A stretch of 32,000 nt of DNA from Candidatus Saccharimonadota bacterium (GCA_963706795.1 OY970170.1:90001-122000); one strand, 5' to 3'. Shown: positions 1 through 23,968, counted from the first letter of the stretch. Program-made: numbers and translations. The notes: a model not told the origin generated them from the sequence alone.

Positions 1-770
<770 letters not shown>

Positions 771-872
771 TCCTACTCATTATTCCCACCAGCATCCAAA
801 CGGTCTCCGGATCGTTTGGGCACACGGGAACCGAAGTCCAGCACTTCCCTTCCAATCCATAATTCTCCCAAT

Positions 873-4988: not shown

Positions 4989-6293
4989 ATGAATATAGAG
5001 CACTCTAATTATCATTCTAAGAATCTTGTCTGAGCGGGTATCTCGGACTTTTTTCCTGATGATCAGGGGCATCTTTTTTCTCACGAAGAACAATCTCAAG
5101 TGCTTGAGTCTTCCCTTGCTCAAAATGGTATTTTTTGTATACAACTTCCCAAATGAGTCCTTGCAAGCGAGATGCCCGAACTCTTGCATACGCAGCTCGA
5201 CCAGGCCTATGAACTGGACAGGATTCGTCTCGAAAATCACAGAATAGCGAACGGACTTATTGAGCCCGTTCGTGATCCAATCGATCCGCGCTGAAAGTAC
5301 CATCCAGAAGAAAAACGCTTCTGCAATAATGGATGGATGGCTCCGGATGGCACCATTCATCTCTGTCACTGGCATGATCCAGGACATGATCCATACGCGC
5401 CCTATTTTCTCCTTGATACTATCAAAATGCGAAGTCTCGGATTTTCTGTAGGCGAAGCAAGACGCGTTGCTGAAAACCATTCGCTCAGTGCACAAGGATG
5501 GATCAAGCTCCATCGTGAAATATTTCAGATCACCAGCTGGACTCCAGAGCAACAAGCAATGATAAAACTCTGGACAGAAATCATGCCCGACACACAAACT
5601 CGTGACCTTTGATTTATAGATCGTGGCGAGAAAGCTAAAAAGCTTGATCTCGAGAAAACTCGTACACAAATTTTAGGCGCGATTGAGTTCAGGCAAGAAA
5701 TTGATTCACTTGGGACCACGCCTCTCTTTTTTTCGAGAAATTCATCTTCACGAGATATTGAGCGAATCATTACTCAGCGCTTTGGAAAGATCAACGCTCA
5801 GATATTTATTGATCGTCTTATAGATAGCTCTGTAGCGCAGCGTGCCATGGTCGCAATCTCTCCACAGTGAGATATGTTTTGTTTTGTGCCAAGACTCAGT
5901 CCGCGTGGTATGGAGCGATATGATGACGCGTATGATCCGTATTACTTTGACATAGGATATATGAATTCCCTCAATTGGGATGATGACTATATTGAGCACA
6001 CTGACGGCTTCTATCCATATTTTCAAAAACGAGGATATCTTGTGTTTGGTCTTGCACGGTTCAAAACGCATCTCGATGTTGCCACCGAAAAAGTTACTAA
6101 ATGGAGAGAGCAAAAACTTGCACAGAAGGACGATAGTGATAATGAAATCTCTATTCCGGAAACTATCATTACCGAATCCCAACTCACCGCCATGAAGCGA
6201 TGGAATGAATTTTTTGATCCGCTCACCGCAAAAGCAAAAAAGGCCTACGATGCAGAAAATCTCGCAGATGATAACTCTGATATTCCATTCTAA
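4989..6293 (+). CDS. Hypothetical protein (434 aa), continuous only if TGA=Gly
   Basis: The plus frame is open from ATG 4989 to TAA 6291-6293, with in-frame TGA at 5031, 5154, 5292, 5610 and 5868. It joins track ORFs 5337..5612 and 5874..6293. The amino-acid composition is balanced, and a strong terminator follows at 6301-6332. The overlapping minus-strand ORFs look like antisense shadows. No family recognised. Confidence 0.6.
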
Positions 6294-6333: not shown

Positions 6334-7215
6334 CTAAGAGAATATCCACGGAGCAATCGTATTAAGGATAAATCCTACCAAAAAGAGAAGCACCAGCCCC
6401 ATGATGAGCTTACTAATGCGCCCCTTTGCCTTAGTGCGAGATCCTTCGTCATCGGCACTGAGTGACCACTGGATTCCAGAGAGTACAATCATAAGTACTC
6501 AGAGAAGTGCTGTAATAAATGTCGCGTACTTGATGAGTCCACCAAGGAAGCCTTGTACTGTGGCAAATCCGCCCTGCACTGTACATTGATATTTTGCCTT
6601 TTCGACACCTCAAGTCGCAATCTGTACACAGTTTGCTCCAGGGATATTTTCGGTGGTTGTAATTTTAAGTGCTCACTTCTTTGATGAAGATGAACTCGGT
6701 GCAGTACTATCCGTTGATGAAGTCGCGGCATCTGATGGGGTAACCGGCGCCCCTGCCGCATCGAGCGTCACAGGCTGACCATCTCAACCAGAGACTGTCA
6801 CGGAACCATCAGGATTTACTTTTACATTTGATTGCCCGCCATCTCCAACATGTGCAATTTCGTAGGCTTCGACCGCCTTTTGTTGTTCGGGCGTCATAAC
6901 CTTGCTACTTGGAGTAGCTGTGGTGTTCACATCCTTCGCTCCAGTTGACGGAGTTCCGTCAGCATTTTTATAGAGACCTGAATTATTTTGTGCTTCTTTT
7001 ACAGACTTTCCTTTGTCATCATTCGCACTCGAACTCGCTGGAAGTCCACTCTGACCGGCTGGCGGATCCGTATAGGTAATATTTCATTTCGCATCTTTTG
7101 TACCAATACTCGTTCCATCGCCACCGTAGATAATTTCATCAGCAAAAATTGGATGAATTCCCTGCAAGAGACCGAGTATTACAACCAAAAGGCCCGTCGT
7201 GAATATTTTTTTCAT
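6334..7215 (-). CDS. Secreted protein (293 aa) with a C-terminal VirB2/TrbC-like ('T4SS pilin'-type) two-helix hairpin
   Basis: Signal peptide MKKIFTTGLLVVILGLLQGIHPIFA, then an S/T/G/P/D-rich region of about 190 aa. A Cys pair (NCVQ...YQCT) precedes the hairpin TM-GIQWSLSADDEGSRTKAKGRISKLIMGLVLLFLVGFIL-TM. In-frame TGA codons occupy 7084-7086, 6784-6786, 6673-6675, 6610-6612 and 6499-6501. TAG stop at 6334-6336. Confidence 0.75.
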
Positions 7216-7219
7216 AATC

Positions 7220-8137
7220 TTAGAGTTTGAAATCAGCGAGATCCTTGAGGAAAGTATAGCTCGCAAGAAGAATAATCACCGCAATAAAGGTATTAATCAC
7301 AATGGATTTTCCCTTCTTGGCACGCTCCTCGTCACCGGCAGAGCTGATATAGTACCAAGCACCGAGTGTGAGGAAGAAGATCGCAGTGGGTCCTGCAAAA
7401 AAGAGAGCGAGATTAGCAAGCGATGCAAACATCGACTGGCCACTTGGGATATTACCCGAGTAGGCAACCGACACCCATGCCTGGATAACACCGAGGAATA
7501 TGAGTGCTAAAAATCCATAGAGCGCCTGGTTTTTGGCAGTCTTTCGAGCTTCGTCATTGCCGCCAGAAACGATGAGTTTAAAGCCGGCGAGCGCAAAGAA
7601 AAATATCGCAAATCCGATGATACCAATACGGATGAAGGCAATAACTCCATTCTCGATGGTTGAATTCCAGACATCAAAATTTACAAAAATATTCGTTCCG
7701 CCCTTTTGCGAAGAGACAAAGTCGCTATTCGTGGGGGTTCAGGTGATGTCCTTCCCGCCTCATTCCCTGCCTGCTGTAAAGACGTTATAGAGCTGACCAG
7801 GAATATTGACGAACAAAAATGCGATTACCGCGTAGACGAGTTGGCTTTTTTGTTTGGAGAGTTCGCCTTCATCGCCGTATGCGATCACCATCATAATACC
7901 GGCATAGACGATAAAAATGACTGCGAGACCATTGACGATGACCTTGGCGGTTGAGAGGATATTACGGCCGGCATTGCCGACTTTTTCGACGGTGGATTCA
8001 CCCGCGAGTGGCCCCATAGAAGTCGTCGAGAGCTCCCCTGCCCCTGGAATAACATCAACCCCCGCATTCACCGAAAAGGTTGCGAGGGTAAGAATTCCGA
8101 GGATGAGTGTGAGTGTTGCTTTTTTGAATATGGACAT
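7220..8137 (-). CDS. Signal-peptide protein (305 aa) made of three tandem VirB2/TrbC-like TM hairpins (six TM segments)
   Basis: It joins track ORFs 7760..8188 and 7220..7474 through TGA codons at 7760-7762 and 7739-7741. Signal peptide MSIFKKATLTLILGILTLATFSVNA. There are three repeats of TM, an acidic loop ending in K, then TM: ..AYGDEGELSKQKSQLVYAV.., ..VSGGNDEARKTAKNQALYGF.. and ..SSAGDEERAKKGKSIVINTF... ATG 8137 lies 1 nt after the pilT stop. Confidence 0.75.
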
Positions 8138-8138
8138 G

Positions 8139-9203
8139 TTATTCATCATTCGTGAAGTAGCCGATGTAGTCTTCTTGTTTGACGACACCGCCCGCTGCCA
8201 GCTTGTCAGCCGATGCGCGCATGGAGATCATACCTTCTTGGCTTCCAAGTTCAATATTATTATTGATTTGGATGAGGTCTCCGGATTTTATGAGGTTTTT
8301 GATCGCTGGTGTAATGAACATAAGCTCATGAATACCAACACGACCGTGCCCCTCCGCACGAGGAATCAGACGCTGCGAAAGCACTCCAAGAAGCGAATCC
8401 GCCAAACGCACCCGAACCTGCACCTGAATATCAGGCGGGAAAAACTGGATCAAACGATTAATTGTCTGCACCGAACCCGAGGTATGAAGCGTTGAAAATA
8501 CCAGATGACCCGTTTCTGCGAGATTCATTGCGGCTTCGACCGTCTCTTTGTCTCGCATTTCACCGACCATAACGATGTCAGGATCTTCACGCATCGCAGC
8601 TCGGATGGCTGATACAAACGAATCCGTATCGCGCCCAACTTCTCTCTGTGAAAATATTGATATTTTGTCTGTAAAAATGAATTCTATCGGATCTTCGATC
8701 GTAACGATATGCTCTCTACGGCTCTCATTAATACGATCAATAATCGATACCATCGTCGTCGACTTACCCGAACCTGTCGGCCCCGTGATGAGGAAAAGCC
8801 CCTGCTTTGCAGCCAAAATCTTGTTTACGCCCTGGGGCAAACCAAGGTCCTCCATCTTTTTAGCTTCGCGTTCAATACGACGAAGAACAAATCCTACCTT
8901 CCCGAGTTTAAAAAATCCATTTACACGAAAAGGCGTTCCATCGCGCGATACATAGGCGAAGTCGACATCGTGCTTTGCATAAAATGCAGTTTGATTGTCC
9001 TTGTCACCCTTAAAAAGCTCAAGTGCGAGAGCATCGGCAATTTCAGGCGTGATCTTGCCAGCTTCCTGCAGCTTTGCGAGCTCGCCGTGGACACGAAACG
9101 CGATAAATTCTCCCTCGGCAATATGGATATCCGATGCGGTGATCTTGATGGCATATGCGAGAATCCCCTCGAGGGAGAAACCTTGGTTTGTGTTTTCGGA
9201 CAT
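8139..9203 (-). CDS. pilT: PilT-like type IV pilus retraction ATPase (354 aa)
   Basis: Walker A GPTGSGKSTT, Asp box IVTIEDPIEF, Walker B DPDIVMVGEMRD, His box TGHLVFSTLHT, and a PilT-type AIKNLIKSGD motif. The length is typical of PilT rather than PilB. No in-frame TGA. Confidence 0.88.
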   Translation of the reverse strand: MSENTNQGFSLEGILAYAIKITASDIHIAEGEFIAFRVHGELAKLQEAGKITPEIADALALELFKGDKDNQTAFYAKHDVDFAYVSRDGTPFRVNGFFKLGKVGFVLRRIEREAKKMEDLGLPQGVNKILAAKQGLFLITGPTGSGKSTTMVSIIDRINESRREHIVTIEDPIEFIFTDKISIFSQREVGRDTDSFVSAIRAAMREDPDIVMVGEMRDKETVEAAMNLAETGHLVFSTLHTSGSVQTINRLIQFFPPDIQVQVRVRLADSLLGVLSQRLIPRAEGHGRVGIHELMFITPAIKNLIKSGDLIQINNNIELGSQEGMISMRASADKLAAGGVVKQEDYIGYFTNDE

Positions 9204-9206
9204 AAA

Positions 9207-9857
9207 TTATGCAGGAATTTCTTTAGTAAGCATGGCGATAACTTTTTGCGCGCGTTTGCTATCTGCTTCGATTTTCTGAGTCTCTTCTTCTTTAGCCTTA
9301 GCTTCTGCAAGGATACGCTCGCTTTGTGCAATAAGATCAGCTTTCTCATCGAGAAGTGCCTTAATCTTTGCTTCGTCTCGTTTTACATTTTCCTGGATCT
9401 TGGCAATCGTTGCAGTAATTGTACTATCGAGATCCATCGTATCTGAAACTTCAGCAAGATCGAATGCTTCCGTTGCTTTTGGCTCGACAACTGCAGCGAA
9501 TTCTTCTCTCGTTGCGTTTACGGTTTCGATTACTGGAAGTGATTCGATCGTATCAATAACTGATTCAGGAGCTTCGGATACTGGATCAAAAAAGAGATCG
9601 GTTGCTTCGGAAGCGGCTGAAACTGTATCAGTTGAAGCAATAACTGGCTCATCAAAAGTAACAACATCAGCTGTAGTTTCTTCGTCTGCAAAGGCAGAAA
9701 TATGAGGAGCTTCGGTAGCAGGCTCGTCATTTAAGATCAAAAAGTCAGAAGTCGCAAGAGAAGTATCCGACTCAGGAGCTTCAGTAGTTACGGGAGTTGC
9801 CACAGCAGTCGCTGTTTTTGAAGAAGACGAATCGTCAGCAAAATTAAAGAAATCCAT
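9207..9857 (-). CDS. Acidic low-complexity protein with a C-terminal coiled coil (216 aa)
   Basis: ATG-to-TAA ORF whose stop lies 3 nt before the pilT ATG. The N-terminal two-thirds are rich in D/E/T/A/S. The C-terminus (IAKIQENVKRDEAKIKALLDEKADLIAQSERILAEAKAKEEETQKIEADSKRAQ) has heptad-like character. No family recognised. Confidence 0.65.
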   Translation of the reverse strand: MDFFNFADDSSSSKTATAVATPVTTEAPESDTSLATSDFLILNDEPATEAPHISAFADEETTADVVTFDEPVIASTDTVSAASEATDLFFDPVSEAPESVIDTIESLPVIETVNATREEFAAVVEPKATEAFDLAEVSDTMDLDSTITATIAKIQENVKRDEAKIKALLDEKADLIAQSERILAEAKAKEEETQKIEADSKRAQKVIAMLTKEIPA

Positions 9858-10277: not shown

Positions 10278-10316
10278 AAACCCTCCGGAGCTCGTCAGAG
10301 CGAAGGAGGGTTTTTT
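10278..10316 (+). terminator. Rho-independent terminator after ybaB
   Basis: CCCTCC (10281-10286) pairs with GGAGGG (10305-10310), with inner GCTC/GAGC pairing and a T6 run at 10311-10316. It is nearly the same sequence module as the rpoC terminator. Confidence 0.8.
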
Positions 10317-10453
10317 ATATGTTTCAGATTTTAAAAACATCTTTTGCAGCTCAAATTTCAATTAAGAAAGATTTTTAAAAAATCACAAAAATAATTAAGA
10401 AATAATTAATAATCGTAATGTATACTTTGCGAGTTTTATAAACTCATCCACTC

Positions 10454-11152
10454 ATGCAGAAAATACCATTGGCATTTATTACAGTGCTTTGTCTCCTTGG
10501 ACTCACCTCATGCAACAACATTTTTAAGAATCAGACAGATAGCTGACCAGACGAAAAAGCAACAGCTATCAAAGCACTCTCGACCGAATATATAAAAAAT
10601 GTGCAGCCCGTAGACTTCTCGCTCACATATACAGGTTTTATCCTCGAACCATTTACCCAAAGCAGTACACTGACGCTCTCAGGCTGAACGATCTACAACA
10701 AAGACAAATCACAAAGCGGCATGCTCACGCAGGAAGTCTGAGCTAATCTCTATAAAAAATGATCGAACTGGTACTACGATCGATCGAATATACTCCGAAG
10801 TCCCACCGGTGATAGACAAGATCTCACCCCAGAAAAAACAGAATCCATCAAACTCAATTTTGTTCCCTGATTCACAAAAATGCGTCTCCTCTGAAAAGAC
10901 TACGCATTCAACGAAGCAAATCTCACTAAGAATGGCCAGATATTCGACCTTACAATTTCACTTAATAAATGAGAAGCTACCGTCATTCAGTTAGAAAACT
11001 CCAAAGAAAAAGCAAACCGACAAGCCCTCTTTGATGAATACGACAAAAGGGTTGCCGCCATCAAATCCAAGTACATGTCCGACCCCTACACGATGAATTC
11101 CCTCATCGACGAGCTCAACAAGGCCTACCAACTCGACGCAACAAAATTCTAA
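10454..11152 (+). CDS. Putative lipoprotein (232 aa), continuous only if TGA=Gly
   Basis: MQKIPLAFITVLCLLGLTSC is a signal peptide with a lipobox-like Cys. The frame is open to TAA 11150-11152, with 7 in-frame TGA (10544, 10685, 10739, 10760, 10868, 10892, 10970). Under the standard code no ORF of 60 aa or more appears in this frame, so the whole gene is fragmented and missed. Confidence 0.65.
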
Positions 11153-11169
11153 ATATTCATTCTTCTCAT

Positions 11170-12300
11170 ATGAAAAAATTTCTTCTCTTTGTCGGATTTA
11201 TTCTCTCGGTATCAATCGCTCATACCTCGTTCGCAGCATCGAGTATGTTGGATTATACGTATATTGATTGTCATGCAGGAAATGACACAACTGCTGAACC
11301 ATTCAATAGTACAAAGCCTTATAACACCCTTTATGCAGGCATATACTCTAGCATCAATTATATCAACGGTTTTTGGAATATTCCTGCTCAGGCACAAAAC
11401 GTACTTGGAAAGAGATTCGTTATTAAAGTAAAGGCTGGATGCGTATTTGATGGACTGAGTCAAAATGGGTACATACCCCTTTACTTCAATGGGAATGTCT
11501 ACAAAAATGATCTACTCATAACATCATCTGATGAAAATAAAACATTTGGTGTTCAATCAATCTACCTCTATGACGGCGGGTACACAACAAGTGGCTTGGT
11601 GTTTAAAAATGTAGATTTTATGGCTTCGTTAAATAATAGTTCATATATCTATCTAAATAATTCACAATGAAGCACCATACAGAATAGTATCATTCGCTGT
11701 AAGACGTTCGCTTGTATAAATAATTCAGGCTCTAGTAACTCAAATATTATTGTAGATAATTCAATCATTAAAATCACCTCAACAAATACTGCTTGAGACA
11801 CTATTTTCCATGTGCCATGAATTATTCGAAATTCTAAAATTGAATACACAGTTGCCAATGGAGCAACAAGCCGTCTAGTATTTGGATGAATCACAAGTAA
11901 AGTACAACTTATGCTTTGAAACATTATTGATGCCTGAAATCAAGAAGTAGCGATAAGTTGACCAGATGCAATAACAAACAAATTTACGAATATCAAAAAA
12001 CTCAGTCCAGGTCCAATTTTTGCAAATAATACAGTCCAAAATACACAGCCGATTACTGTATCAAACTGACAATATACAATAAACAATGTATTTACGGGCG
12101 GATACACAGACTCCTACGATCCATCAAATCTACGTAGAAATTTTAGTTCAGCTCAGACTACAGGTGGCGTAGGTTGGCTCTATCAGAAAGCTCTTGGAAC
12201 GATGCTGGAGTCCAATTTTACTGACCGATCACTCTACCAGCAATACACAGGAAATACTATGGGTGACACAAGTTCGCCAATTTATCTCATGTTCCGATAA
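11170..12300 (+). CDS. Secreted Asn/Ser/Thr-rich protein (376 aa), possibly a parallel beta-helix
   Basis: Signal peptide MKKFLLFVGFILSVSIAHTSFA. Track ORF 11170..11670 extends through 8 in-frame TGA (11668, 11794, 11818, 11887, 11917, 11935, 11959, 12067) to TAA 12298-12300. Recurrent turns such as IQNSIIRC, VDNSIIKI and IRNSKIEY suggest beta-helix coils. That fold assignment is inference only. Confidence 0.7.
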
Positions 12301-12341
12301 ATCTAGAAAGTGTAAGAATTTTATAAACTTCACCTTTCTCT

Positions 12342-15300
12342 ATGTTTTCGCTCAAGAGGAATATTTCATGGATTACAATCGGCACGGTATTGTCGCTGGT
12401 CATCAGTTTCAATGTATTTGCCGTAGACTACGCAAATACAATCGGAATATATGGGACTTGATTCAACAATACACTGGATGCTGATGCCAATCTTATTTCG
12501 TCCGATTATTTCACGGGATATGTCGGGGATTACTGAACCAAGTACACTCCTCCACTATTCAATCCAGAGGAATCAAATCTCGTGATGAGTAATTTTACTG
12601 GGGTAATATGAGACTACGGAAGCAAATTTTTGCTTACAGAAGCATCTGGAAGCCTACTAAGCATAAACGATTTCAAGGGAACAATTGGTGACTATGGTTC
12701 AAAATTTGATCTCAATCTTCCAACAGGCCCACTACTCAGTTTCAATCAGTTCACTGGTAGTATCTGAGACTATGGTACTCAGTTTAGTAATACCCTCGAT
12801 CCATCAGTAAATTTATTACCTAAGGCAAAATTTACTGGTTATATTGGTGCGTATCAGGACGCCCCTCGCCTTTCGCAGTTCACCTCAGGTCGCGTAGACA
12901 AGCTGGATTTTCAGCTTGCAGCCGCTTCATCCGATCCCGAAAGCACAAAATGAATCCGCACACCAAATATTCATGCGGCAAAAAAACAAATAACAGAAGC
13001 GAGAAATGAGGTTGATCCCGTAGAGCTCTCCACAGGAGAATTCGTCTACGATAATACCCTCATGCAGTTCCCAAGCACGGGACTTGGGTACAATTTCAGT
13101 ATCAAATACCGCTCGCAGGTATCGTTCACTGGATCACTGGGTTATAATTGGACACACACATATGACAGAAAACTCTATCAGAACGCTGATGCCTCGGTAA
13201 CTTACCAAGATGGCGATGGAGCAATGCATACTTTCAAACCTTCGAGTGATGGATACGAATACCTCACTGGGTACGAAGCAAATCTCTCAAAGACTTCGTC
13301 TGGAGGATATTTGATCACATTCAAGAACGGAAACACAGAAACCTTCAACGATCAAGGTCTTACAACTCAGAGTGCAGATGCGAACGGGAATACTCTCACG
13401 TATTCGTACAACACACTCGGACAACTCACACTCGTACAAGATCGTTTCGGACGCACTGCGACATACGAATATACCGCTGCAGGATATATCTCTCGGGTAA
13501 CTGACAATACTGGAAGATCCGTGATACTTGCTTACTACGACGGAACAACCGCGGATGGATACGACGGAGATCTCAAGTCCATCATCTTGCATAATTCTGA
13601 AACGAGTGAGAAGACGATCGGATTCACGTATTTCAAATCCTCAGATCCAAGCCTTGCACACAACCTCATCTCACTCATCGATTCGAAGGGGCAAATCTAC
13701 GTCACAAATACATACGATACCAACGACCGCGTCCTCTCACAACACTACGGAGACGGGACTGGAAGCTTCGAATACACACTCGCAGATATCCATGCCGACG
13801 ATACACCAGCAAGCATCGGAAGCGGTGCAGTGATCGGGCAATATATCGTGAAAAACCATGCCACTGACAAGGAAGGAAATATCACTGAGTACACATACAA
13901 CCGCCTCGGTAATGTCATCAAGAAGGAAGTATTCGCAAAAGATGGTACAAGTAGCAATATCACCCGCTACACCTACGACACCGTTTGACGCATCACTGCC
14001 GAGATTTTCCCACGTGGGAATGGAACGGCATGGGGATACAACACTGCAGGTAAGAAAATCGAAGCACGACAGAAATCAGATATTTCAGCACCAAACAATG
14101 ACTCGCAGGATATCATCACACGATATTCTTACGATGCTACGACGAACAAACTGCTTACCACTACCCTTCCAGACGGCAGTGTCATCACAAATACATACGA
14201 CTCACGAGGCAATCTCACACGAGTCACTCAGGGCGGCGTAGTTCTCGCTCTTGGAGGATCGATGAACACGATCGCACAGGCATTTGTATACTCAGACCGC
14301 GGAGAAATACTCTCGACACAGGACGCAGAGGGGAACTTCACACAGTTTGCGTATTCGGGTGCAAACGTGATCCAAAAAACAACTGGATCATGAGCGAGTA
14401 CCATCACAGAATCATATTCCTATGATACTCACGGGAATCGCACCAGTCTCAAAGATGGTGAAAATAATACTACTGCCTACGAATACGATCCATTCGATCG
14501 TCTCATCTCAACTACCAGTCCAAAGTGAGTTCGTACCGAATACGGCTACGATGCGAACAACAACCGCCTCTTTGAGCGAGTACTCATGGGTACTGGTAAA
14601 ATTACCCAGACTCAATACACCTATGATATCCTCGATCAGGTCATCACAAAAACATCCGACATCGACACAACTCACACGCTCGCCGAGCGCACCACCTACA
14701 CGAAGAACGGAAAACCAAAAACCCTCACGATCGAAGGAGGTCCAACTAAGACATTTGTATATTCTCCAGATGAGAAAATCATCTCCGAGACCCTGAGTGC
14801 ATCTGGGATGACTTCAGCGGTCACGACCTACGAATACGATGCAAACAGCAATCCGATCAAGATCACTGATCCGCTCGGACGTATTACACGATCAGAATAC
14901 GATGGATTCGATCATCTGATCAAGACTATTTCACCAAGTGGAGTGAATACACTCTATAGCTATGACGTGCTTTGAAATCTCTCAAAAACTGAGACCCTCT
15001 CCCCTACTGGAGTTCGTCTGAGCCTGAGTGAAACCGTGACAAATTCTCTGAAGAAACCACTTGCGCAAACCCTCTACCAACTCGACATTCAAGGGAATGT
15101 TATCGCCTGAGCTGCGCACCGTACTCAGAAGTTCGCCTACAACAAAAACTCAGCCGTCATCCTCGAGACCAATCCACTTGGGGGAGTTACCAGCTCACAG
15201 TACAATTCACTCGGACAGCTCACGAGCAAAGTCGACCCCACGAATACCACGACCACCTATGCCTACAATCCTCGCGGTCTTGTCGCTCAGGAAACTACGA

Positions 15301-18122
15301 GTCTTTCTGGTGTAACACAGACTCGCACCACCTATGGATACGATCTCGACGGTCGCATGATCCAGTCGACTCGCTACGATGATCAAACTCCCGTCACAAC
15401 GCAGGTGACCTACGATGCGCTTGGTAATCCCCTCTCCCAGACCGACCCAGCAGGCAATATCACAACCCGCACTTTTGACCTGCGTGGTAAACTCCTCTCT
15501 GAGTCACAGAGTCTCTCAGGTGCACTCGTAACTACCAGCTACGAATACGATATCCTCGGCAACAAAACCAAGCTCATCGATCCAAAGTGAAATGCCACCA
15601 TCTACACCTACGACGGATTCGGTCGCAAAACTCAGGACACGCTTCCTGATGGATCGAAGACGTATTTCACCTACGATCTAGCGAACCAGCTCACCCAAAA
15701 GATCGACCCTAATGGTTCGGTATTTCATCAGACCTTTGACCTCGAAGGCCGCCTCACCGAGCGCACGATCGAGCGTGCCGCAGGTGTTGCAGGTGTAAAT
15801 AGTGAAACCTTCACCTACGACGCCCTGGGACGACTCACGAACACGAGCGACAACCTCGGTCACACCGTCGCACTCAAATATGATTCCCTCGGCAACAAAC
15901 TCGAGGAACTCAGCAACGGTCGCACGATCACGAACACATATAATCCTGCAGGAAATGCCCTCACGATAGGACTTCCTTCTGGCAAAAATATTACTCAGAC
16001 TTTTGACAATATCGGTCGTCTCACACATGTCGCAACGAATACTGGAGCGATTATCGACTACCAGTTTTCGGGAAATACGCTCACGAATACTCTCTACGGT
16101 AATGGAGTTACCCAATCACGCACCTACGATGGACTCATGCGTCTGGGGTCACTCAATGCAACCGCTTCATGAGCCACGAATATCAACCGCATCTACACCT
16201 ACGATAGCCTCGACAATATCCTCACTGATAGCCAAAGTACACACACCTACGATGCACTTTCTCGCCTCACGAGTTCGACTTCGAGTGTCCTTCCTATGGC
16301 CACTTCGAGCTTCAACTACGATATATCAGGCAATCGTACTACGCAACAAGCAACCAATGCACCACAGACGCTCTACGAGACTAATACACTCGATCAATAT
16401 ACTACCCTCTCAGGTACGAATACCGGCGTACTTCGTTATGATCTCAATGGAAATCTCCTAGAAAATACTCGATTTGTCTTCGTATATGATGCTCACAATC
16501 GACTGGTTTCGGTGAGCGAAAAGGTGGTAGATATCGTACCTCCTGCGACTGGAAGTGGCTCGACGGGAACTGGTTCTACTGGAAGCGGAGAAACCAGCAC
16601 GGGTTCTACGAATTCGGGAACTACAAACGAAACAGGAACTGGAACATGATCAACTGGAAGTGGATCGACTGGATCGGGAGAAATCCTTCCAGAGACGGGA
16701 ACTGGAAGTGAGAGTGGGACAGGTTCACAGAATTCTTCAGGAAGTACGTCATCAGGTATGACTTCAACGGGCGGGACACAGACAGGAAGCACCGAAACAG
16801 GATCGACTTCAACAGGTTCAACAGAAAGTGGTAGCACTTCCCTACCTGAGACGAATACAGGCGGGACTTCTACTGGTGAAACTGGAACAGGAAGTGGTAA
16901 TCTCACAGGCTCAGGCGTATCTGTCATTCCTGAGGTAGTGACAATCGGTTCAATCGAAGAAACGGGGACTGGAACGAATACTGGAAGTGGATACGCACTC
17001 CGACTGGTCGCCACATATAGTTATGACACTCTTGGTCGAAGACTCAGTAAGGATGTTGGACCAAAGCATGTAGAATATGCATATTCAGGAGAACAGCTCA
17101 TGTTTGAACGTGTGAGTGAGAATGGAGTGAGTGTAGATGCTGAATATGTATACGGTATCGGAGGAATGGACGATGTAATAGCTTCTGTGTCTTCTTCTGG
17201 AGATGTGAGGTATTTCTTACATGATCATCTGGGATCGACGGTTGGAGTGATGGATGGAAGTGGAGGGATGATTCAGGAGTATGCGTATGGAGTATTTGGG
17301 GATGTGCATGTGAAGAGTGGAAGTGGAGGGTTTGTGAGTGGTAGTTCGCTTATTACTTCGAGACTATTCACTGGAAGAGAATATGATGCGGAGACTGGAT
17401 TGTATTATTACAGAGCAAGAACGTATGATGCTGCTTTGGGTAGATTCTTGCAGAGAGATCCGATTGGGACGGATGATCAGGTGAATATGTATACGTATGT
17501 GAGGAATAATCCAATGAAGTGGGTTGATCCGAGTGGGATGAGTACAAAAGAGTTTATTGCAAAACACGATGCAACATCACTTTTGGAAAAATATATGAAT
17601 GATGCGCGAGACGAACTTAGTTTCGGATGAGTATTTCCAAAATGGGGGTACTCACAAATCGATTATGGCGTATGATCATTTTCAGCAAAAAAATGGAACA
17701 TAAAATATAACGTAGATTTCCAGACTCTTGCATTTGATCCTTCGAATAACAATCAATCTTGTGCGACCTATGGAAATAATTGAGCATGATGATGCAAAGT
17801 ATACATTGAGTGAGAATCTGTCGAACTCTCAGAATTATGAAATTTTCTAATTTGATATAATTGAGTTTACGCAGGTTATACCCTAAACGATCCTGATAAC
17901 GTTGCAGATATTTATAAATCGGGGATGTTTGTAGAATACAATTTAACAAATGAAAAATGAACAGATAGAACAAGGGAAGCTGCACTAAACGATGAGCTAC
18001 AGGATCGCAAATGGTATGATATTGGCTACAAAAAATGAGCCAGGGAAATGACTGCAAAATGGGGATTTCAGAGAGATCAAATATCACTCAAAGAGGCTAT
18101 TATTTATTGAAACACCCGCTAA
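12342..18122 (+). CDS. Rhs/YD-repeat polymorphic toxin with an N-terminal Sec signal peptide (1926 aa)
   Basis: A single frame (codon starts divisible by 3) is open from ATG 12342 to TAA 18120-18122 when 25 in-frame TGA are read as Gly. Signal peptide MFSLKRNISWITIGTVLSLVISFNVFA. There are dozens of YD repeats (YxYDxxG[RN]L). The Rhs core end reads RFLQRDPIGTDDQVNMYTYVRNNPMKWVDPSGM and is followed by a 193-codon C-terminal tip (CT1, 17541-18119). Confidence 0.9.
12432..12890 (+). repeat. Six tandem repeats of about 26 aa, F-[TK]-G-x-[IV]-G-D-Y-G-[ST]-[KQ]-F, in the Rhs N-terminal region
   Basis: The units are TIGIYGTGF, FTGYVGDYGTKY, FTGVIGDYGSKF, FKGTIGDYGSKF, FTGSIGDYGTQF and FTGYIGAYQD. 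Equivalent Gly positions are encoded by GGN in some units and TGA in others (12459, 12534, 12609, 12765). Confidence 0.8.
16545..16992 (+). repeat. Gly/Ser/Thr-rich low-complexity insert (about 150 aa) inside the Rhs repeat region
   Basis: Degenerate short tandem DNA repeats (actggaagtgg/tcgac-type) encode TGSGSTGTGSTGSGETSTGSTNSG...GTSTGETGTGSGNLTGSG. They lie between YDAHNRLVSVSEK and ATYSYDTLGRRLSK. The minus-strand P/V-rich ORF 16493..17014 is its antisense shadow. Confidence 0.85.
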
Positions 18123-18123
18123 T

Positions 18124-18399
18124 ATGAAACAATCATTAAAGAAAATCAGAATAGCAATAATCTATTTGCTTGTAGTATTGCCGTTTCCATTTATTTATTA
18201 TGAATTGGGAATTTTCTTATTTACATTTAGTTATCAACATATCTTCATTTGTTCAACTCCAATGGGATATTGTGGCGAAGAAGAAATTAAGAGTCTGTTA
18301 TTTTCAATAGTCACAGCTACAATATTTATCTCAGTAATATATTACTTGGTATTTCGCATACTAAAGTGATACATCGATAGCAAATCAAAAGACATATAG
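18124..18399 (+). CDS. Small membrane protein (91 aa); candidate immunity protein for CT1
   Basis: The ATG lies 1 nt after the Rhs TAA (cgcTAAtATG). Hydrophobic segments IAIIYLLVVLPFPFIYYELGIFLFTF and LLFSIVTATIFISVIYYLVF. It reads through TGA 18367 to TAG 18397-18399. Confidence 0.6.
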
Positions 18400-18419
18400 G
18401 TATATATTGGACAAAGATT

Positions 18420-18890
18420 ATGCAAAAAATTACATTCCTTCTGTTTAGCACTCTTTTAGCACTAGTACTTATTAAGTTTACTTTTAGTTTATTCAAGGAA
18501 AGCCCTGTTAACCTTGCCATAACAACAAATAATACTGATGCTCAGACTTTAGAAGGTTTTCTTGCAGAGCTCAAAGCCTCTGGACTTATTTGTGAGGATA
18601 GCGGACAAGTAACTTTTTATATCTTGGATAATACTAAGTCTAAGGTAGTAGGTAAGGCGACCTGAGATACAGAATCAAAGATCATAGGAATGTGCAAGAA
18701 ATATTGAATTGCCGAAATATGGAAACAGAATGATTATATACTCTTCTCAATGCTTGGTCCTATTAGATGACATGGATTTCTACGTTACTATTCCGATAGG
18801 ATTCCAAAAGATATACAAGACAAAGGAGTAGACGGCGAGCTCAAAGCAGTAAATTCGAATTGGATACTTGTTACACCAACTCCAAATTAA
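18420..18890 (+). CDS. Signal-anchored or secreted protein (156 aa), second gene of the CT1 cassette
   Basis: Begins MQKITFLLFSTLLALVLIKFTFSLF. Track ORF 18420..18665 extends through TGA 18663, 18705 and 18768 to TAA 18888-18890. No family recognised. Confidence 0.55.
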
Positions 18891-19918
18891 GACAGGCGCT
18901 CAGCAAAAAAACTGAGGATGAAGTAAATACAACTACTGAGTATGTATACGGTATCGGAGGAATGGATGATGTAGTAGCTTCTGTGTCTTCTTCGGGAGAT
19001 GTGAGGTATTTCTTACATGATCATCTGGGATCGACGGTAGGAGTGATGGATGAGAGTGGAGAGATGATTCAGGAGTATTCGTATGGAGTATTTGGGGATG
19101 TGCATGTGAAGAGTGGAAGTGGAGGGTTTGTGAGTGGTAGTTCGCTTATTACTTCGAGACTATTCACTGGAAGAGAATATGATGCGGAGACTGGATTGTA
19201 TTATTACAGAGCAAGAACGTATGATGCTGCTTTGGGTAGATTCTTGCAGAGAGATCCGATTGGGACGGATGATCAGGTGAATATGTATACGTATGTGAGG
19301 AATAATCCAATGAAGTGGGTTGATCCGAGTGGGATGAGTACAAAAGAGTTTATTGCAAAACACGATGCAACATCACTTTTGGAAAAATATATGAATGATG
19401 CGCGAGACGAACTTAGTTTCGGATGAGTATTTCCAAAATGGGGGTACTCACAAATCGATTATGGCGTATGATCATTTTCAGCAAAAAAATGGAACATAAA
19501 ATATAACGTAGATTTCCAGACTCTTGCATTTGATCCTTCGAATAACAATCAATCTTGTGCGACCTATGGAAATAATTGAGCATGATGATGCAAAGTATAC
19601 ATTGAGTGAGAATCTGTCGAACTCTCAGAATTATGAAATTTTCTAATTTGATATAATTGAGTTTACGCAGGTTATACCCTAAACGATCCTGATAACGTTG
19701 CAGATATTTATAAATCGGGGATGTTTGTAGAATACAATTTAACAAATGAAAAATGAACAGATAGAACAAGGGAAGCTGCACTAAACGATGAGCTACAGGA
19801 TCGCAAATGGTATGATATTGGCTACAAAAAATGAGCCAGGGAAATGACTGCAAAATGGGGATTTCAGAGAGATCAAATATCACTCAAAGAGGCTATTATT
19901 TATTGAAACACCCGCTAA
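18860..19918 (+). CDS. Orphan Rhs fragment 1: last ~130 aa of the Rhs core plus a toxin tip identical to CT1. No ATG start; probably silent
   Basis: Homology to the main gene begins at EYVYGIGGMDD (18940). The fragment contains the DPIG...DPSGM core end and then the same tip as 17541-18122. The frame is open only from 18800, the first ATG is internal, and TTG 18860 is the only possible start. TAA stop at 19916-19918. Confidence 0.6.
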
Positions 19919-19919
19919 T

Positions 19920-20195
19920 ATGAAACAATCATTAAAGAAAATCAGAATAGCAATAATCTATTTGCTTGTAGTATTGCCGTTTCCATTTATTTATTATGAA
20001 TTGGGAATTTTCTTATTTACATTTAGTTATCAACATATCTTCATTTGTTCAACTCCAATGGGATATTGTGGCGAAGAAGAAATTAAGAGTCTGTTATTTT
20101 CAATAGTCACAGCTACAATATTTATCTCAGTAATATATTACTTGGTATTTCGCATACTAAAGTGATACATCGATAGCAAATCAAAAGACATATAG
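19920..20195 (+). CDS. Duplicate copy of the 91-aa membrane protein (candidate CT1 immunity)
   Basis: Translation is identical to 18124..18399 at offset +1796. Confidence 0.6.
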
Positions 20196-20215
20196 GTATA
20201 TATTGGACAAAGATT

Positions 20216-20686
20216 ATGCAAAAAATTACATTCCTTCTGTTTAGCACTCTTTTAGCACTAGTACTTATTAAGTTTACTTTTAGTTTATTCAAGGAAAGCC
20301 CTGTTAACCTTGCCATAACAACAAATAATACTGATGCTCAGACTTTAGAAGGTTTTCTTGCAGAGCTCAAAGCCTCTGGACTTATTTGTGAGGATAGCGG
20401 ACAAGTAACTTTTTATATCTTGGATAATACTAAGTCTAAGGTAGTAGGTAAGGCGACCTGAGATACAGAATCAAAGATCATAGGAATGTGCAAGAAATAT
20501 TGAATTGCCGAAATATGGAAACAGAATGATTATATACTCTTCTCAATGCTTGGTCCTATTAGATGACATGGATTTCTACGTTACTATTCCGATAGGATTC
20601 CAAAAGATATACAAGACAAAGGAGTAGACGGCGAGCTCAAAGCAGTAAATTCGAATTGGATACTTGTTACACCAACTCCAAATTAA
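20216..20686 (+). CDS. Duplicate copy of the 156-aa signal-anchored protein
   Basis: Translation is identical to 18420..18890 at offset +1796. Confidence 0.55.
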
Positions 20687-21699
20687 GACAGGCGCTCAGC
20701 AAAAAAACTGAGGATGAAGTAAATACAACTACTGAGTATGTATACGGTATCGGAGGAATGGATGATGTAGTAGCTTCTGTGTCTTCTTCGGGAGATGTGA
20801 GGTATTTCTTACATGATCATCTGGGATCGACGGTAGGAGTGATGGATGAGAGTGGAGAGATGATTCAGGAGTATTCGTATGGAGTATTTGGGGATGTGCA
20901 TGTGAAGAGTGGAAGTGGAGGGTTTGCGAGTGGTAGTTCGCTTATTACTTCGAGACTATTCACTGGAAGAGAATATGATGCGGAGACTGGATTGTATTAT
21001 TACAGAGCAAGAACGTATGATGCTGCTTTGGGTAGATTCTTGCAGAGAGATCCGATTGGGACGGATGATCAGGTGAATATGTATACGTATGTGAGGAATA
21101 ATCCGATGAAGTGGGTTGATCCGAGTGGGATGAAAGGGAAACCAGCTACGCCTGAAAGGAAGTATGATGTAACTGAGATGGTGTTGTTTATATACGATTT
21201 ATCCCTAGAGAATACCGATTGATTTAATTTTTTTGTATTTAAGGAAGGTACAAAAAATGGCTGAGCTTTTGACATCAAAAGAAACTCATATATAGCTACT
21301 ATGGCAGCAAAGAATAATGGTATTGTTTACTTCGATTGACAAGCAGTTGAGCCTTCTAATTTAGGAAATTTGTTAGCAGGATTAAATATGAAGAACAGTT
21401 ATTTACCATCTTCATTGGTACGTAATAAGTTTATGGAAGTCGAGATAGACAATGCAACTAACGAGTGATACTGAAAATACGCGGAAGAAATTGCTAAATA
21501 TGATGAGCATAGTGATGAGGTTTGGTACGATGCATGAGAAAATATTTACAACACTTACACCAATGCGAGTACCAGGCAAGAAAAAATAGACACTATTCGA
21601 AATGCAATAACAAATACAACTCCAGAATACAAGAGGCGCTCAAACGAAGAGGGAGTAAAAAGAAAGTATTACAAAGATTTAATCAATAACCAAAACTAG
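20656..21699 (+). CDS. Orphan Rhs fragment 2: Rhs core end plus a divergent toxin tip CT2 (188 codons)
   Basis: The core piece is the same as in orphan 1 up to VDPSGM, then new sequence: KGKPATPERKYDVTEM... It continues through TGA 21220, 21262, 21337, 21466, 21472 and 21535 to TAG 21697-21699. CT2 shares motifs with CT1 (VYFDGQAVEPSNLGNLLAGLN vs VYIEGESVELSELGNFLIGYN; WYDAG vs WYDIG). Confidence 0.65.
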
Positions 21700-21702
21700 C
21701 AT

Positions 21703-21933
21703 ATGAAATTACTACGATCTTTTAGCACTGTAAGCATCTTTATTGTTGCGTATCTAATCACTTACAAAATCTCCTATCTTGCCATTCATAAATATATATT
21801 TCCATTCAGGTATGCTGATGATTTAGATTCAGTAGTACACAGTAGCCTACTTGCATTTTTTATATCAATTTTATCTGGATTTTTTCTAGCCTATCTTGTG
21901 TATAGAAAACTTACGCATCAAAATCGAATCTAA
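21703..21933 (+). CDS. Small two-TM membrane protein (76 aa); candidate immunity for CT2
   Basis: The ATG lies 3 nt after the CT2 TAG. Hydrophobic segments VSIFIVAYLITYKISYLAI and LLAFFISILSGFFLAYLVY. TAA stop. Confidence 0.6.
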   Translation: MKLLRSFSTVSIFIVAYLITYKISYLAIHKYIFPFRYADDLDSVVHSSLLAFFISILSGFFLAYLVYRKLTHQNRI

Positions 21934-22326
21934 GGGGATGTGTATATGAAGAGTGGAGGTGGGGGGTTGTAAGCAATGGAGTCAGCCTCATTCATTTGAA
22001 GAATAGTCTGTCAAAGTGAAACATTTTCTGTGGATAGTATTTATGATGGCGGACTAGAGATTGAGAAAGTTGGTTATGCAAAATACAATCCAACGTTATC
22101 GAGAGATCAAATAGAGCAACGAGCGCTGGCAGATGAGTTACCAGATCGTGCTTGGTACGATGTCTGATACATGTATGCCACAGGACAAAAAGAAGGTACT
22201 ATCAGTTTATCAATGTCTAATGCAATGAAAGTAGGAAATAAAACTAGTAAAGATCAATTAACAAGAGTAAATCAACTAATAGATCAAGCATGCTGATCAA
22301 ATCAGCAATGTCGTCTATCTCATTAA
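21934..22326 (+). pseudogene. Degraded orphan 3: a ~34-nt stub of the Rhs core (GDVYMKSGGGG) followed by the C-terminal part of a third toxin tip (CT3)
   Basis: ggggatgtgtatatgaagagtggaggtgg resembles the core sequence ggggatgtgcatgtgaagagtggaagtgg (GDVHVKSGSGG). There is an in-frame TAA at 21970. The downstream frame encodes ...RDQIEQRALADELPDRAWYDV[TGA]YMYATGQ..., homologous to the CT1 tail REAALNDELQDRKWYDIGYKKG. TAA stop at 22324-22326. Confidence 0.6.
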
Positions 22327-22336
22327 TTTAAATTAT

Positions 22337-22645
22337 ATGCGTAAATTTATTTCTATCTTTGCGAAGTTCTGCCTGTTCCTAATTATTCTTTTTGAAGCTG
22401 GAGGATTTGTGTTTCGTACTCATGAATACATTGCAACTAAAATACTAATGTTATATCAGCCTGATACATTGTATTATGGCCATGGATTTGAAATTGGCAT
22501 TGTATCAGGCCTACTCCTCTGAATCCTCTGAGTTTACTGATTCACAAAAATAGATAAGAAACTAACGGATCGATACTGATTACTTCCTGATGTATTAATT
22601 ATTGCAGTTACCTTTGCGTACATTTGAATGAGGATTTGGCTATAG
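22337..22645 (+). CDS. Small three-TM membrane protein (102 aa); candidate immunity for CT3
   Basis: Track ORF 22337..22522 extends through TGA 22520, 22529, 22538, 22577 and 22625 to TAG 22643-22645. Hydrophobic segments FAKFCLFLIILFEAGGFVF, IGIVSGLLLGILGVYGF and LLPDVLIIAVTFAYIGM. Confidence 0.55.
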
Positions 22646-22693
22646 CAATAAATTTAGAATAAAAGGATTGGGGCAATCGAGAGTATGAGTCAC

Positions 22694-22736
22694 TAAAAAA
22701 AATCCCCGCAACTCTCACGAGTTGCGGGGATTTTTT
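22694..22736. terminator. Bidirectional terminator between the Rhs locus and the convergent peptidase operon
   Basis: Perfect 12-bp stem: TCCCCGCAACTC (22703-22714) pairs with GAGTTGCGGGGA (22719-22730), loop TCAC. Flanked by A8 on one side and T6 on the other. Confidence 0.9.
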
Positions 22737-22741
22737 CCTCC

Positions 22742-23968
22742 TTATCCATTCATCGCCCGATAAATCAAACTCGCAACCTCACCTCTTGTGAGTGGTGCAT
22801 TAGGGTTGAAACTTGCACCGGACTCCAATGCATCATTGTCATTCGCCCAAACTATGTGCGGGAAGAACCAGTCGGTTGTCTTTACGTCGGGGAATGGTGA
22901 AGTTGCTGGCGTGCCAGGTTGTACACCAAGAAGTCCGAGGACAATTTTAAGACCTTCTACGCGAGTCACTGGAGCATTAGGTCGGAATGTACCATCTGGG
23001 TAGCCACCGACCGTTCCAAGGGCATGGGCGGTGTTTACGTATGACAAAAATGCATTGCCGACAGGTACGTCCGAAAAGTATGTGGTCGTGTCGTTTGTGA
23101 GGGATTTCTTAGAGGCATTAAATGCCATCTTGAGGATCTCTCCCCTGCTTACATTCGCATTTGGGAAAAATCGACCATTCTGGCCTGATGCGATACCATG
23201 ACTCTTGATAAAAGCCACTGCCGGAGCATAGAGATAGCTCGGTGATACATCACTAAAAAGTACATCATCATCGCCAGAAGTCACTGGAGTGGTAATCGTG
23301 ACCGTACTTGCTACTTCAACGGTTGGCTTCGGTGGAGTGACTACTGGAGTCGCGATGGGCGTGACAACTGGAGTGGGAACAGAAGGAGTCGGCGATCCGC
23401 CAACACGATCCAAAAATACGAGTGGATTCACTGTATAACGCACGCCGTTCTCGATACCAAGACCGCGATTTACTGCTTCCATAAAGCCGAGTCCGAGGGT
23501 TTGTGCATCCTTAAAACTAAATGGCCAATACGGATGAAACGGCGCATCCGCAACATCGATCTGAAAATGCAGATGTTCACCAGTCGACTGACCAGTATTG
23601 CCGGTTTTACCGATGATATCGCCTTCTTTGACTGTTTGCCCTTTGGTTACAGAGAGCTCTGAAAGATGAAGATAATTTGAGTAATACGTCGCTTTTTTGC
23701 CAGTTGCGGGATCGAGGACATTGTCGTGTTGGATCACTACAAAATTCCCATCTGCGGCATTCGTTCCTGCGGCAAATATTGTGCCATTAAGTACTGCATG
23801 GATCGGATCATTCGGAGACATTGGTACGATATCGACACCAGGATGGCTTCCAGAATTTTCGTCGTAGTCGCCTGAGACGTAATTGCCGAGATAGACCGTT
23901 GTGTAGGTCATAAAGAGTGTCGCGAGCTTCGTTGGATCGTAGGGTTTTGGTGTTCGGATTGGGTACAT
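22742..23968 (-). CDS. M23 family metallopeptidase with three C-terminal SLH domains (408 aa)
   Basis: M23 motifs HPGVDI and GEHLHFQI, then a P/T/V linker, then three S-layer-homology-like repeats (FSDVSPSY...FFPNANVSRGE; FSDVPVGN...GTFRPNAPVTRVE; FPDVKTTDW...FNPNAPLTRGE). No in-frame TGA. No recognisable signal peptide at the N-terminus, and a TAA lies 9 codons upstream of the ATG. Confidence 0.85.
   Translation of the reverse strand: MYPIRTPKPYDPTKLATLFMTYTTVYLGNYVSGDYDENSGSHPGVDIVPMSPNDPIHAVLNGTIFAAGTNAADGNFVVIQHDNVLDPATGKKATYYSNYLHLSELSVTKGQTVKEGDIIGKTGNTGQSTGEHLHFQIDVADAPFHPYWPFSFKDAQTLGLGFMEAVNRGLGIENGVRYTVNPLVFLDRVGGSPTPSVPTPVVTPIATPVVTPPKPTVEVASTVTITTPVTSGDDDVLFSDVSPSYLYAPAVAFIKSHGIASGQNGRFFPNANVSRGEILKMAFNASKKSLTNDTTTYFSDVPVGNAFLSYVNTAHALGTVGGYPDGTFRPNAPVTRVEGLKIVLGLLGVQPGTPATSPFPDVKTTDWFFPHIVWANDNDALESGASFNPNAPLTRGEVASLIYRAMNG

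Follow-up and report, generated by a model that had tools for sequence, protein, structure and literature searches.

We analysed a stretch of bacterial DNA of 32,000 nucleotides (OY970170.1:90001-122000; the whole stretch is referred to below as the window, with positions counted from its first letter), at the centre of which lies a single large gene, here called rhs, followed by an array of additional C-terminal cassettes (Table 1). When the triplet TGA is read as glycine, rhs forms one continuous reading frame, and the encoded protein comprises, in this order, a signal-peptide-like N-terminus, an N-terminal module of repeats, a DUF6531 plug domain, a long shell of YD repeats, an Rhs-associated core (TIGR03696) and a C-terminal tip of 193 residues; all parts that the original prediction had named were thus found. 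The array downstream of rhs (17125-22645) had not been part of that prediction. Taken together, the gene and the array very probably make up a polymorphic Rhs toxin locus that is intact and looks functional, in a bacterium whose TGA triplets are decoded as glycine.

The frame of rhs contains 25 in-frame TGA triplets and not a single internal TAA or TAG, whereas 30-58 TAA and TAG triplets occur in each of the remaining five frames, and 2000 composition-preserving shuffles of the stretch yielded a mean of 73 and a minimum of 48. TGA itself occurs in frame at close to its random rate (25 versus ~30), and this combination of zero TAA or TAG with TGA at about the random rate indicates that TGA is a sense codon in rhs and not a mark of gene decay. 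The open reading frame (ORF) pieces 13062..13988, 14586..14975, 15357..15590, 16296..16649 and 16758..17630, which had been proposed to belong to one gene, are all in frame with position 12342 and fuse into a single ORF of 1926 amino acids (aa), although the standard code breaks this ORF into 26 pieces and not into the approximately 30 fragments originally given. The independent Logan assembly of ERR12037365 encodes identical residues 1-1629, with all 13 TGAs of the shell included. One might argue that a gene which translation table 11 splits in this manner, and whose pieces are stored as separate proteins in public collections, is a decayed Rhs pseudogene of a standard-code organism, the TGAs being real stops. 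Such an origin is at odds with 1926 codons free of TAA, TAG and frameshifts, with the location of the TGAs at conserved glycine positions, and with the presence of in-frame TGAs in the LeuRS, RsmG, M23, GNAT and pilin-like genes of the window, where no gene terminates in TGA. We therefore rejected the pseudogene, which can be considered effectively refuted and deserves practically no credence. The rhs gene is intact under genetic code 25.

The assignment of TGA to glycine is well supported by sequence comparison. All 23 genes that were delineated in the window stop at TAA or TAG, and none stops at TGA. Within rhs, three TGAs coincide with glycines of a repeated GDYG motif for which the paralogous repeats have GGN, and four TGAs coincide with the glycine of YDxxG or (D)PxG repeat motifs. 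Moreover, a homolog from the JGI collection has the glycine of the core motif DPIG written as TGA, and comparison of tip B of the downstream array with its JGI homolog reveals interchange of TGA and GGN at conserved columns, including both glycines of a GNxxxG motif. The sole TGA of the gene for leucyl-tRNA synthetase (LeuRS) aligns with glycine in the Neisseria and with lysine in the Mycoplasma enzyme, and adds weak support. The Logan gene caller assumes instead that TGA encodes tryptophan (code 4), and the public translations P0001 and P0002 accordingly have tryptophan at these positions. However, TGA matches GGN-coded glycine in the GDYG paralogs, in YDxxG/DPxG, in the core motif DPIG and in GNxxxG of the orthologous tips, and tryptophan has its own codon, TGG, which is used separately. 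The tryptophan reading was rejected on these grounds and must be regarded as exceedingly improbable. A scan for transfer RNA genes found none in the window, and an Rfam scan of it was likewise empty.

TGA is used unevenly. Its share of the glycine codons amounts to 0% in rpoB, rpoC and the genes for a PilT-like ATPase, one M23 peptidase (M23a) and an SPFH protein, all of which have a guanine plus cytosine (GC) content of 47-48%, to 3-21% in the other core genes that use TGA, and to 24-60% in accessory genes of low GC content (28-42%). TGA use hence follows low GC content across the genes of the window, and AT pressure may drive it, TGA being the most AT-rich glycine codon. Known users of code 25 are Gracilibacteria/BD1-5 and Absconditabacteria/SR1 (PMC8080830), and the code alone suggests that the organism belongs to this group; the 'candidate phyla radiation (CPR)-type' organism of the original prediction was deduced from the code only, too, with no taxonomic marker tied to a named lineage. 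The locus is located on a single contig of 1,267,896 bp. In public protein collections it is represented only by standard-code fragments (P0003, P0005, P0008) or by versions with tryptophan at the TGAs (P0001, P0002; Logan and JGI calls). Both kinds conceal the rhs gene from family-based surveys, which implies that surveys of polymorphic toxins systematically miss TGA-recoded lineages.

The N-terminus of the protein exhibits the features of a Sec signal peptide, as had been predicted: the sequence MFSLKRN is followed by a hydrophobic stretch of 19 residues (8-26) and by VFA/VD, with the slash denoting the putative cleavage site, and two more secreted proteins of the window share the leader ending xFA/. 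The predicted repeat module is likewise present and consists of six repeats of ~27 aa with the consensus FTGxIGDYG(S/T)KF...LLS and a mean pairwise identity of 40%. Residues 28-224 match no entry of Pfam or NCBIfam, and thus no recognised wall-binding domain such as CWB2 or LysM, and a search against 5.8e9 protein clusters yielded no homolog of the module, which, by the measure of these searches, is a new sequence family. The sequence at the start of the DUF6531 domain, PVELSTGEF, matches PINLNTGNF, that is, the N-terminal cleavage product of Streptococcus suis WapA which was sequenced experimentally (PMC12704120), the shared motif being P-[VI]-x-L-x-T-G-x-F.

Profile hidden Markov models of Pfam and NCBIfam confirm the Rhs nature of the recoded protein, with strong matches to RHS_repeat (PF05593; E=6.3e-78, 13 stretches), to YD_repeat_2x (TIGR01643; E=3.3e-69) and to the TIGR03696 core. 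The nearest solved structures are the Rhs cocoons of type VI secretion systems (T6SS), namely RhsA (7q97; E=6e-49), RhsP (8h8a), Salmonella bongori Rhs (8qja), Tse15 and Tse5, and next after these follow teneurin-like proteins and TcB-TcC. A scan of GTDB representatives returned as its sole match an Rhs protein of Thermoanaerobaculia with 27% identity. Where a low-complexity segment rich in Thr, Gly and Ser is inserted into the shell, 352 aa separate the aligned blocks, compared with 210 aa in 7q97; at the DNA level this insert contains weak 15-nt tandem repeats only, and it may represent a surface loop, a spacer or a glycosylation region. The core terminates at DPSGM (residue 1733), and the segment PMKWVDPSGM (aa 1724-1733) fits, in the form PxxxxDPxG[LM], the PxxxxDPxGL motif which demarcates the Rhs core end (PMC4436062). 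The motif pair DPIG...DPSGM previously noted for the core end is present, but its spacing is 19 and not 18 residues. The protein thus has the full set of Rhs domains and the two cleavage motifs. Cleavage itself would be expected from these motifs, and homology to the solved Rhs cocoons suggests that the shell closes around the tip.

Beyond the core, the GC content drops from 45-54% in the shell to 28-40% over 17500-22700, which is the classic composition break between an Rhs core and its tip. The core end occurs three times, in the main gene and in orphan cassettes 1 and 2, and the three versions (copies 1, 2 and 3, respectively) are near-identical up to DPSGM, with copy 1 deviating at 16 positions in 17129-17283. 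The switch from conserved to variable sequence falls exactly after DPSGM, in front of three different downstream sequences, with tip A following in the main gene and in orphan 1, and tip B in orphan 2. Comparison of the three copies reveals a mosaic: (i) left of 17283, or the equivalent position, copy 2 is identical with copy 3 and both are unlike copy 1, (ii) over the 51 bp of 17284-17334 all three are identical, and (iii) from 17335, or its equivalent, copy 2 is identical with copy 1 and unlike copy 3. It follows from this three-way mosaic that orphan 1 arose by a single unequal crossover between the core end of the main gene and that of orphan 2, and is a recombinant with a crossover interval of 51 bp.

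Considering that both units of the duplication are 100% identical over 1.6 kb, and that a shared core-end stretch could make an assembler pass a cycle twice, the 1796-bp duplication, which includes orphan 1 and the repeated pair of small ORFs, might be a loop artefact of assembly, the true order then being main gene, cassette A and orphan 2. The Logan short-read contigs break exactly at the shared 31-mers (L002 stops at ~17228, where these start) and do not tell one copy from two. A 1542-nt Logan contig with tip A fits 17483-19024, so that the orphan-type core end is present in the independent assembly. Yet assemblers mostly collapse rather than expand repeats, the source is a single contig of 1.27 Mb, and a single unequal crossover would generate just such a mosaic, with copy 2 matching copy 3 in its left part and copy 1 in its right part. 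An assembly artefact is therefore an unlikely explanation.

Comparable arrays exist elsewhere. Two TGA-rich JGI contigs with a GC content of 24-30%, L003 (JGI 3300027800) and L004 (JGI Ga0209373_10016090, 1-4652), encode, behind an Rhs core end, a homolog of tip B (55-60% identical) and, after it, an 83-aa ORF with two transmembrane (TM) segments. In L004, three Rhs C-terminal cassettes stand in a row, each with a tip of its own; two of these tips are followed by a small hydrophobic ORF while the third runs off the contig end, indicating that orphan arrays recur in TGA-recoded bacteria.

Tip A, tip B and the truncated third tip are homologous across their C-terminal halves (E=5e-7 and 1e-8). 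Their motifs are reminiscent of Ntox44, an all-alpha family often fused to RHS repeats and characterized by the motifs DxK, GNxxxG and DxxxD (Zhang et al. 2012, PMC3482391): the ordered triad is found in tip B and in the JGI homolog, tip A has a degenerate first motif (NxK), and the third tip retains DELPD only, the region of DxK and GNxxxG being missing through truncation. Judged by these motifs, the tips appear to constitute a small, divergent, Ntox44-like family, which we do not file as a member of Ntox44. Among the 5.8e9 clusters tip A retrieved only itself, and a search with a profile built from the three tips added one JGI homolog and one self-fragment; a profile search of the PDB with the tip family returned noise, and tblastn against plasmids nothing meaningful. 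In these searches of the PDB, plasmids and large collections, relatives of the tips are limited to one other TGA-recoded organism. AlphaFold2 modelling of a tip version carrying tryptophan at the glycine positions gave a predicted local distance difference test (pLDDT) score of 31, which is unusable for deducing the fold.

Every copy of the tip family, here and in L004, is followed by a small ORF with two or three TM segments, for which no sequence family was found. By their position and architecture, the small TM proteins are likely to be immunity factors, and the tip/TM-ORF pair is, on the evidence of the sequence searches, a new sequence family. Given that each tip precedes such a protein, the toxin would most likely act at or near the cytoplasmic membrane or the envelope, a conclusion in which we have low confidence.

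Table 1. Features of the rhs gene and of the cassette array downstream, with positions in the window (for the tip from JGI contig L003, motifs are listed)
Feature	Coordinates	Strand	Remarks
Full-length rhs gene	12342..18122	+	5781 nt; 1926 sense codons; 25 TGA read as Gly; TAA stop
Predicted Sec signal peptide, aa 1-27	12342..12422	+	K5/R6 n-region, hydrophobic core, VFA/VD cleavage motif
N-terminal module and linker, aa 28-224	12423..13013	+	six ~27-aa repeats; no homolog
DUF6531 plug/entry domain, aa 225-298	13014..13235	+	PF20148, E=2.2e-14; starts PVELSTGEF
YD/RHS-repeat shell, aa 299-1648	13236..17285	+	Pfam and NCBIfam models, structure-sequence matches
T/G/S-rich low-complexity insert in shell, aa ~1397-1529	16530..16928	+	~133 aa; without counterpart in solved Rhs structures
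Rhs-associated core (aspartyl-autoprotease) domain, aa 1649-1733	17286..17540	+	TIGR03696, E=1.1e-26
Tip A, 193 aa	17541..18122	+	GC 35%; 12/20 Gly = TGA; motifs NIK / GNFLIG / DELQD
Two tandem 1796-bp direct repeat units, starting inside the core-end coding region	17125-18920, 18921-20716	+	100% identical from 17284 onward
Repeat copy 1	17125-18920	+	main core end, tip A, 91-aa 2-TM ORF, 156-aa signal-anchored ORF
Candidate immunity protein A1, 91 aa, 2 TM	18124..18399	+	
Second small ORF of cassette A, 156 aa	18420..18890	+	N-terminal signal/anchor and soluble domain
Orphan cassette 1 (in copy 2)	18936..19918	+	core end (~135 aa) and tip A; recombinant
Duplicate pair of cassette-A small ORFs	19920-20195, 20216-20686	+	
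Repeat copy 3, partial	20717 to ~21137	+	departs directly after the DPSGM codons into tip B
Orphan cassette 2	20732..21699	+	core end and tip B
Tip B, 188 aa	21133-21699	+	motifs DIK / GNLLAG / DEHSD; within orphan cassette 2
Candidate immunity protein B, 76 aa, 2 TM	21703..21933	+	
Truncated third tip, no core	21976..22326	+	C-terminal 116 aa of a related tip; DELPD...WYDVGY
Candidate immunity protein C, 102 aa, 3 TM	22337..22645	+	
JGI homolog tip (L003)			motifs DIK / GNMLAG / DENSD

The array of orphan tips and candidate immunity genes constitutes the strongest evidence that rhs encodes a polymorphic toxin and not a surface scaffold. Code-25 epibionts have been reported to possess giant surface proteins for host attachment (PMC8080830), and since the tip lacks a recognised toxin domain above threshold, one may ask whether rhs encodes a non-toxic scaffold or adhesin, like teneurin or the giant surface proteins of Vampirococcus, with the downstream repeats being incidental. 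However, the core has an intact autoprotease motif, the tips vary and are exchanged precisely at DPSGM, small ORFs are paired with the orphan cassettes, and the same tip family along with a TM protein is found in another organism. Such features are the hallmarks of polymorphic toxins (PMC4436062), and we consider a mere scaffold very unlikely.

Several points nevertheless weigh against a functional toxin locus of the kind outlined here. The analysis is one of sequences. The signal peptide was called by eye from sequence features, closure of the cocoon is predicted from motifs and homology, and the perfect 1796-bp duplication is that of one assembly. Pfam identified no toxin domain above threshold in the tip. 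Tip A scores 15.0 bits against Ntox44 (PF15607), compared with a gathering cut-off of 24 (E=0.032; profile positions 22-100 of 104), and a Pfam scan of tip B, the JGI homolog and the family consensus gave no Ntox44 match. The small TM ORFs share negligible sequence similarity with each other (E~0.07). Finally, the Ntox44 family carries the annotation of a predicted RNase (PMC12165300, after Zhang et al. 2012). Since an enzyme of this kind would be active in the cytoplasm, the annotation conflicts with toxin action near the membrane or envelope and goes poorly with immunity proteins embedded in the membrane.

The locus encodes a known type of weapon, that is, a WapA-like, Sec-dependent Rhs polymorphic toxin, of which the N-terminal module and the tip/TM-ORF pair are the new parts. 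The analogy to WapA drawn in the original prediction proves apt, considering the succession of Sec signal, N-terminal surface module, DUF6531-Rhs and tip (PMC12704120, PMC4436062). As in WapA of Gram-positive bacteria (Bacillus subtilis WapA, S. suis WapA-CT1), one finds here a predicted Sec signal peptide, an N-terminal region that presumably serves surface retention, a DUF6531 plug bearing the cleavage motif, a shell of YD repeats, the autoprotease core, a polymorphic tip, a candidate immunity gene behind it and orphan cassettes, and the system is T6SS-independent (PMC12704120, PMC4436062). The differences are that (i) the N-terminal module is a six-repeat unit devoid of homologs in place of LysM or CWB2, (ii) the genes upstream encode a lipoprotein and a secreted protein, while srtB or secF-like partners as in S. 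suis are absent there, (iii) the protein comprises 1926 aa with one Rhs domain, compared with more than 3000 aa and two such domains in S. suis WapA, and (iv) the tip is not a known tRNase and the gene is written in code 25.

With the T6SS Rhs effectors (7q97, 8h8a, 8qja, Tse15, Tse5), which provide the best matches for shell and core, the protein shares the logic of plug, predicted cocoon and aspartyl protease as well as the orphan tips. It differs from them in having a Sec signal and the extra ~133-aa insert in its shell, and its context is free of PAAR, prePAAR, VgrG and Eag. In Pfam scans of the protein and of every sizeable neighbour in the window, no PAAR, VgrG, T6SS or type VII secretion system components turned up, in agreement with the earlier statement on PAAR, VgrG and T6SS. 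The reading as T6SS cargo was consequently rejected, there being neither a PAAR/prePAAR N-terminus nor VgrG, Eag or T6SS genes in the window. With Ntox44 the tips share the ordered motif triad, and Ntox44 is known with RHS fusion and export by Sec and the type II secretion system (T2SS); in contrast, no immunity family is listed for Ntox44, whereas a small TM protein stands behind each tip here. In Salmonella and Escherichia coli, homologous recombination between the core ends of main rhs and orphan rearranges the tips (Koskiniemi et al. 2014, as cited in PMC4436062). Orphan 1 is likewise a core-end recombinant, with its 51-bp crossover window, but the product seen here is a tandem duplication and not a tip-swapping deletion. 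A single genome of Saccharibacteria has been mentioned as encoding an Rhs/YD toxin (PMC6031116), and in the literature we found no report of such a toxin for code-25 lineages.

Based on these comparisons we propose the following mode of action. The 1926-aa precursor would be exported by Sec, as its signal peptide suggests, and the lineage-specific six-repeat module would retain the toxin at the cell surface, by analogy to the wall-binding N-termini of WapA, with the YD shell folded as a cocoon around the C-terminal tip, as in the solved homologs. Self-cleavage would occur at PVELSTGE on the N-terminal side and after DPSGM on the C-terminal side, where the respective motifs are located. Upon cell contact the ~190-aa tip may then be released into the neighbouring cell, with a target possibly located at or near the cytoplasmic membrane or the envelope, and the small protein with two or three TM segments encoded after the tip would serve as the immunity factor. 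The orphan cassettes would store alternative tips and recombine with the main gene via the shared core-end sequence, in the manner exemplified by the recombinant orphan 1.

The most likely role of such a toxin is competition between related surface-attached cells. Alternatively, a real toxin could be aimed at a host or prey cell in the course of predation or parasitism: the code-25 bacterium Vampirococcus lugosii has been described as an epibiotic predator (PMC8080830), and a Sec-exported toxin held at the surface would constantly touch the host. Linked immunity-like genes and orphan arrays are, however, typical of conflict between relatives (PMC3482391, PMC4436062), and the homologs of the tips were found only in another TGA-recoded organism, so that we regard a host or prey target as rather unlikely, if worth keeping in mind.

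Whichever cell is the target, ~10 kb of a genome of ~1.27 Mb are given to a contact-type toxin and its spare warheads, which argues for competition with relatives, or attack on hosts, by such reduced and presumably cell-attached bacteria. In the cassettes of tips and immunity genes, 46-60% of the glycines are written as TGA, so that these cassettes would be readable by, and exchangeable among, TGA=Gly bacteria only. Quite tentatively, one may thus envisage a gene pool locked to one code, comprising an undescribed family of envelope-acting toxins that are neutralised by hairpin proteins with two TM segments and delivered from the homolog-less surface module of an ultra-small epibiont; possible as this is, we hold it to be doubtful as a whole. 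If it were true, toxin warfare among host-attached bacteria with reduced genomes would form an arena of its own that standard annotation largely overlooks. Once recoded, the N-terminal module and the family of tips and putative TM immunity proteins are open to direct experiment.

Directly upstream of rhs lie the genes for a lipoprotein with an LTSC lipobox (10454-11152 (+)) and for a 376-aa protein with a signal peptide (11170-12300 (+)). Both are low in GC, TGA-rich and without a family match in Pfam or NCBIfam, and they may form one accessory island with the toxin locus (~10300-22700). A consensus scan for promoters and terminators yielded fewer promoter-like sites than shuffled controls and was uninformative. 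Downstream of rpoC, an ORF of 434 aa (4989-6293 (+)) contains five in-frame TGAs and has no Pfam match. The gene at 9207-9857 (-) encodes an acidic protein of 216 aa, rich in Thr, Ala, Glu and Asp and with a coiled-coil-like C-terminus, which has no family match and contains zero glycine codons, be it GGN or TGA. At 6334-9203 (-), genes for two T4SS_pilin membrane proteins (PF18895; E=1.6e-8 and 4.6e-15) adjoin that of the PilT-like T2SSE ATPase (E=1.8e-49). On the far side of the array, an M23 peptidase fused to three SLH domains is encoded at 22742-23968 (-), which suggests an envelope of the S-layer or secondary-cell-wall-polymer type.

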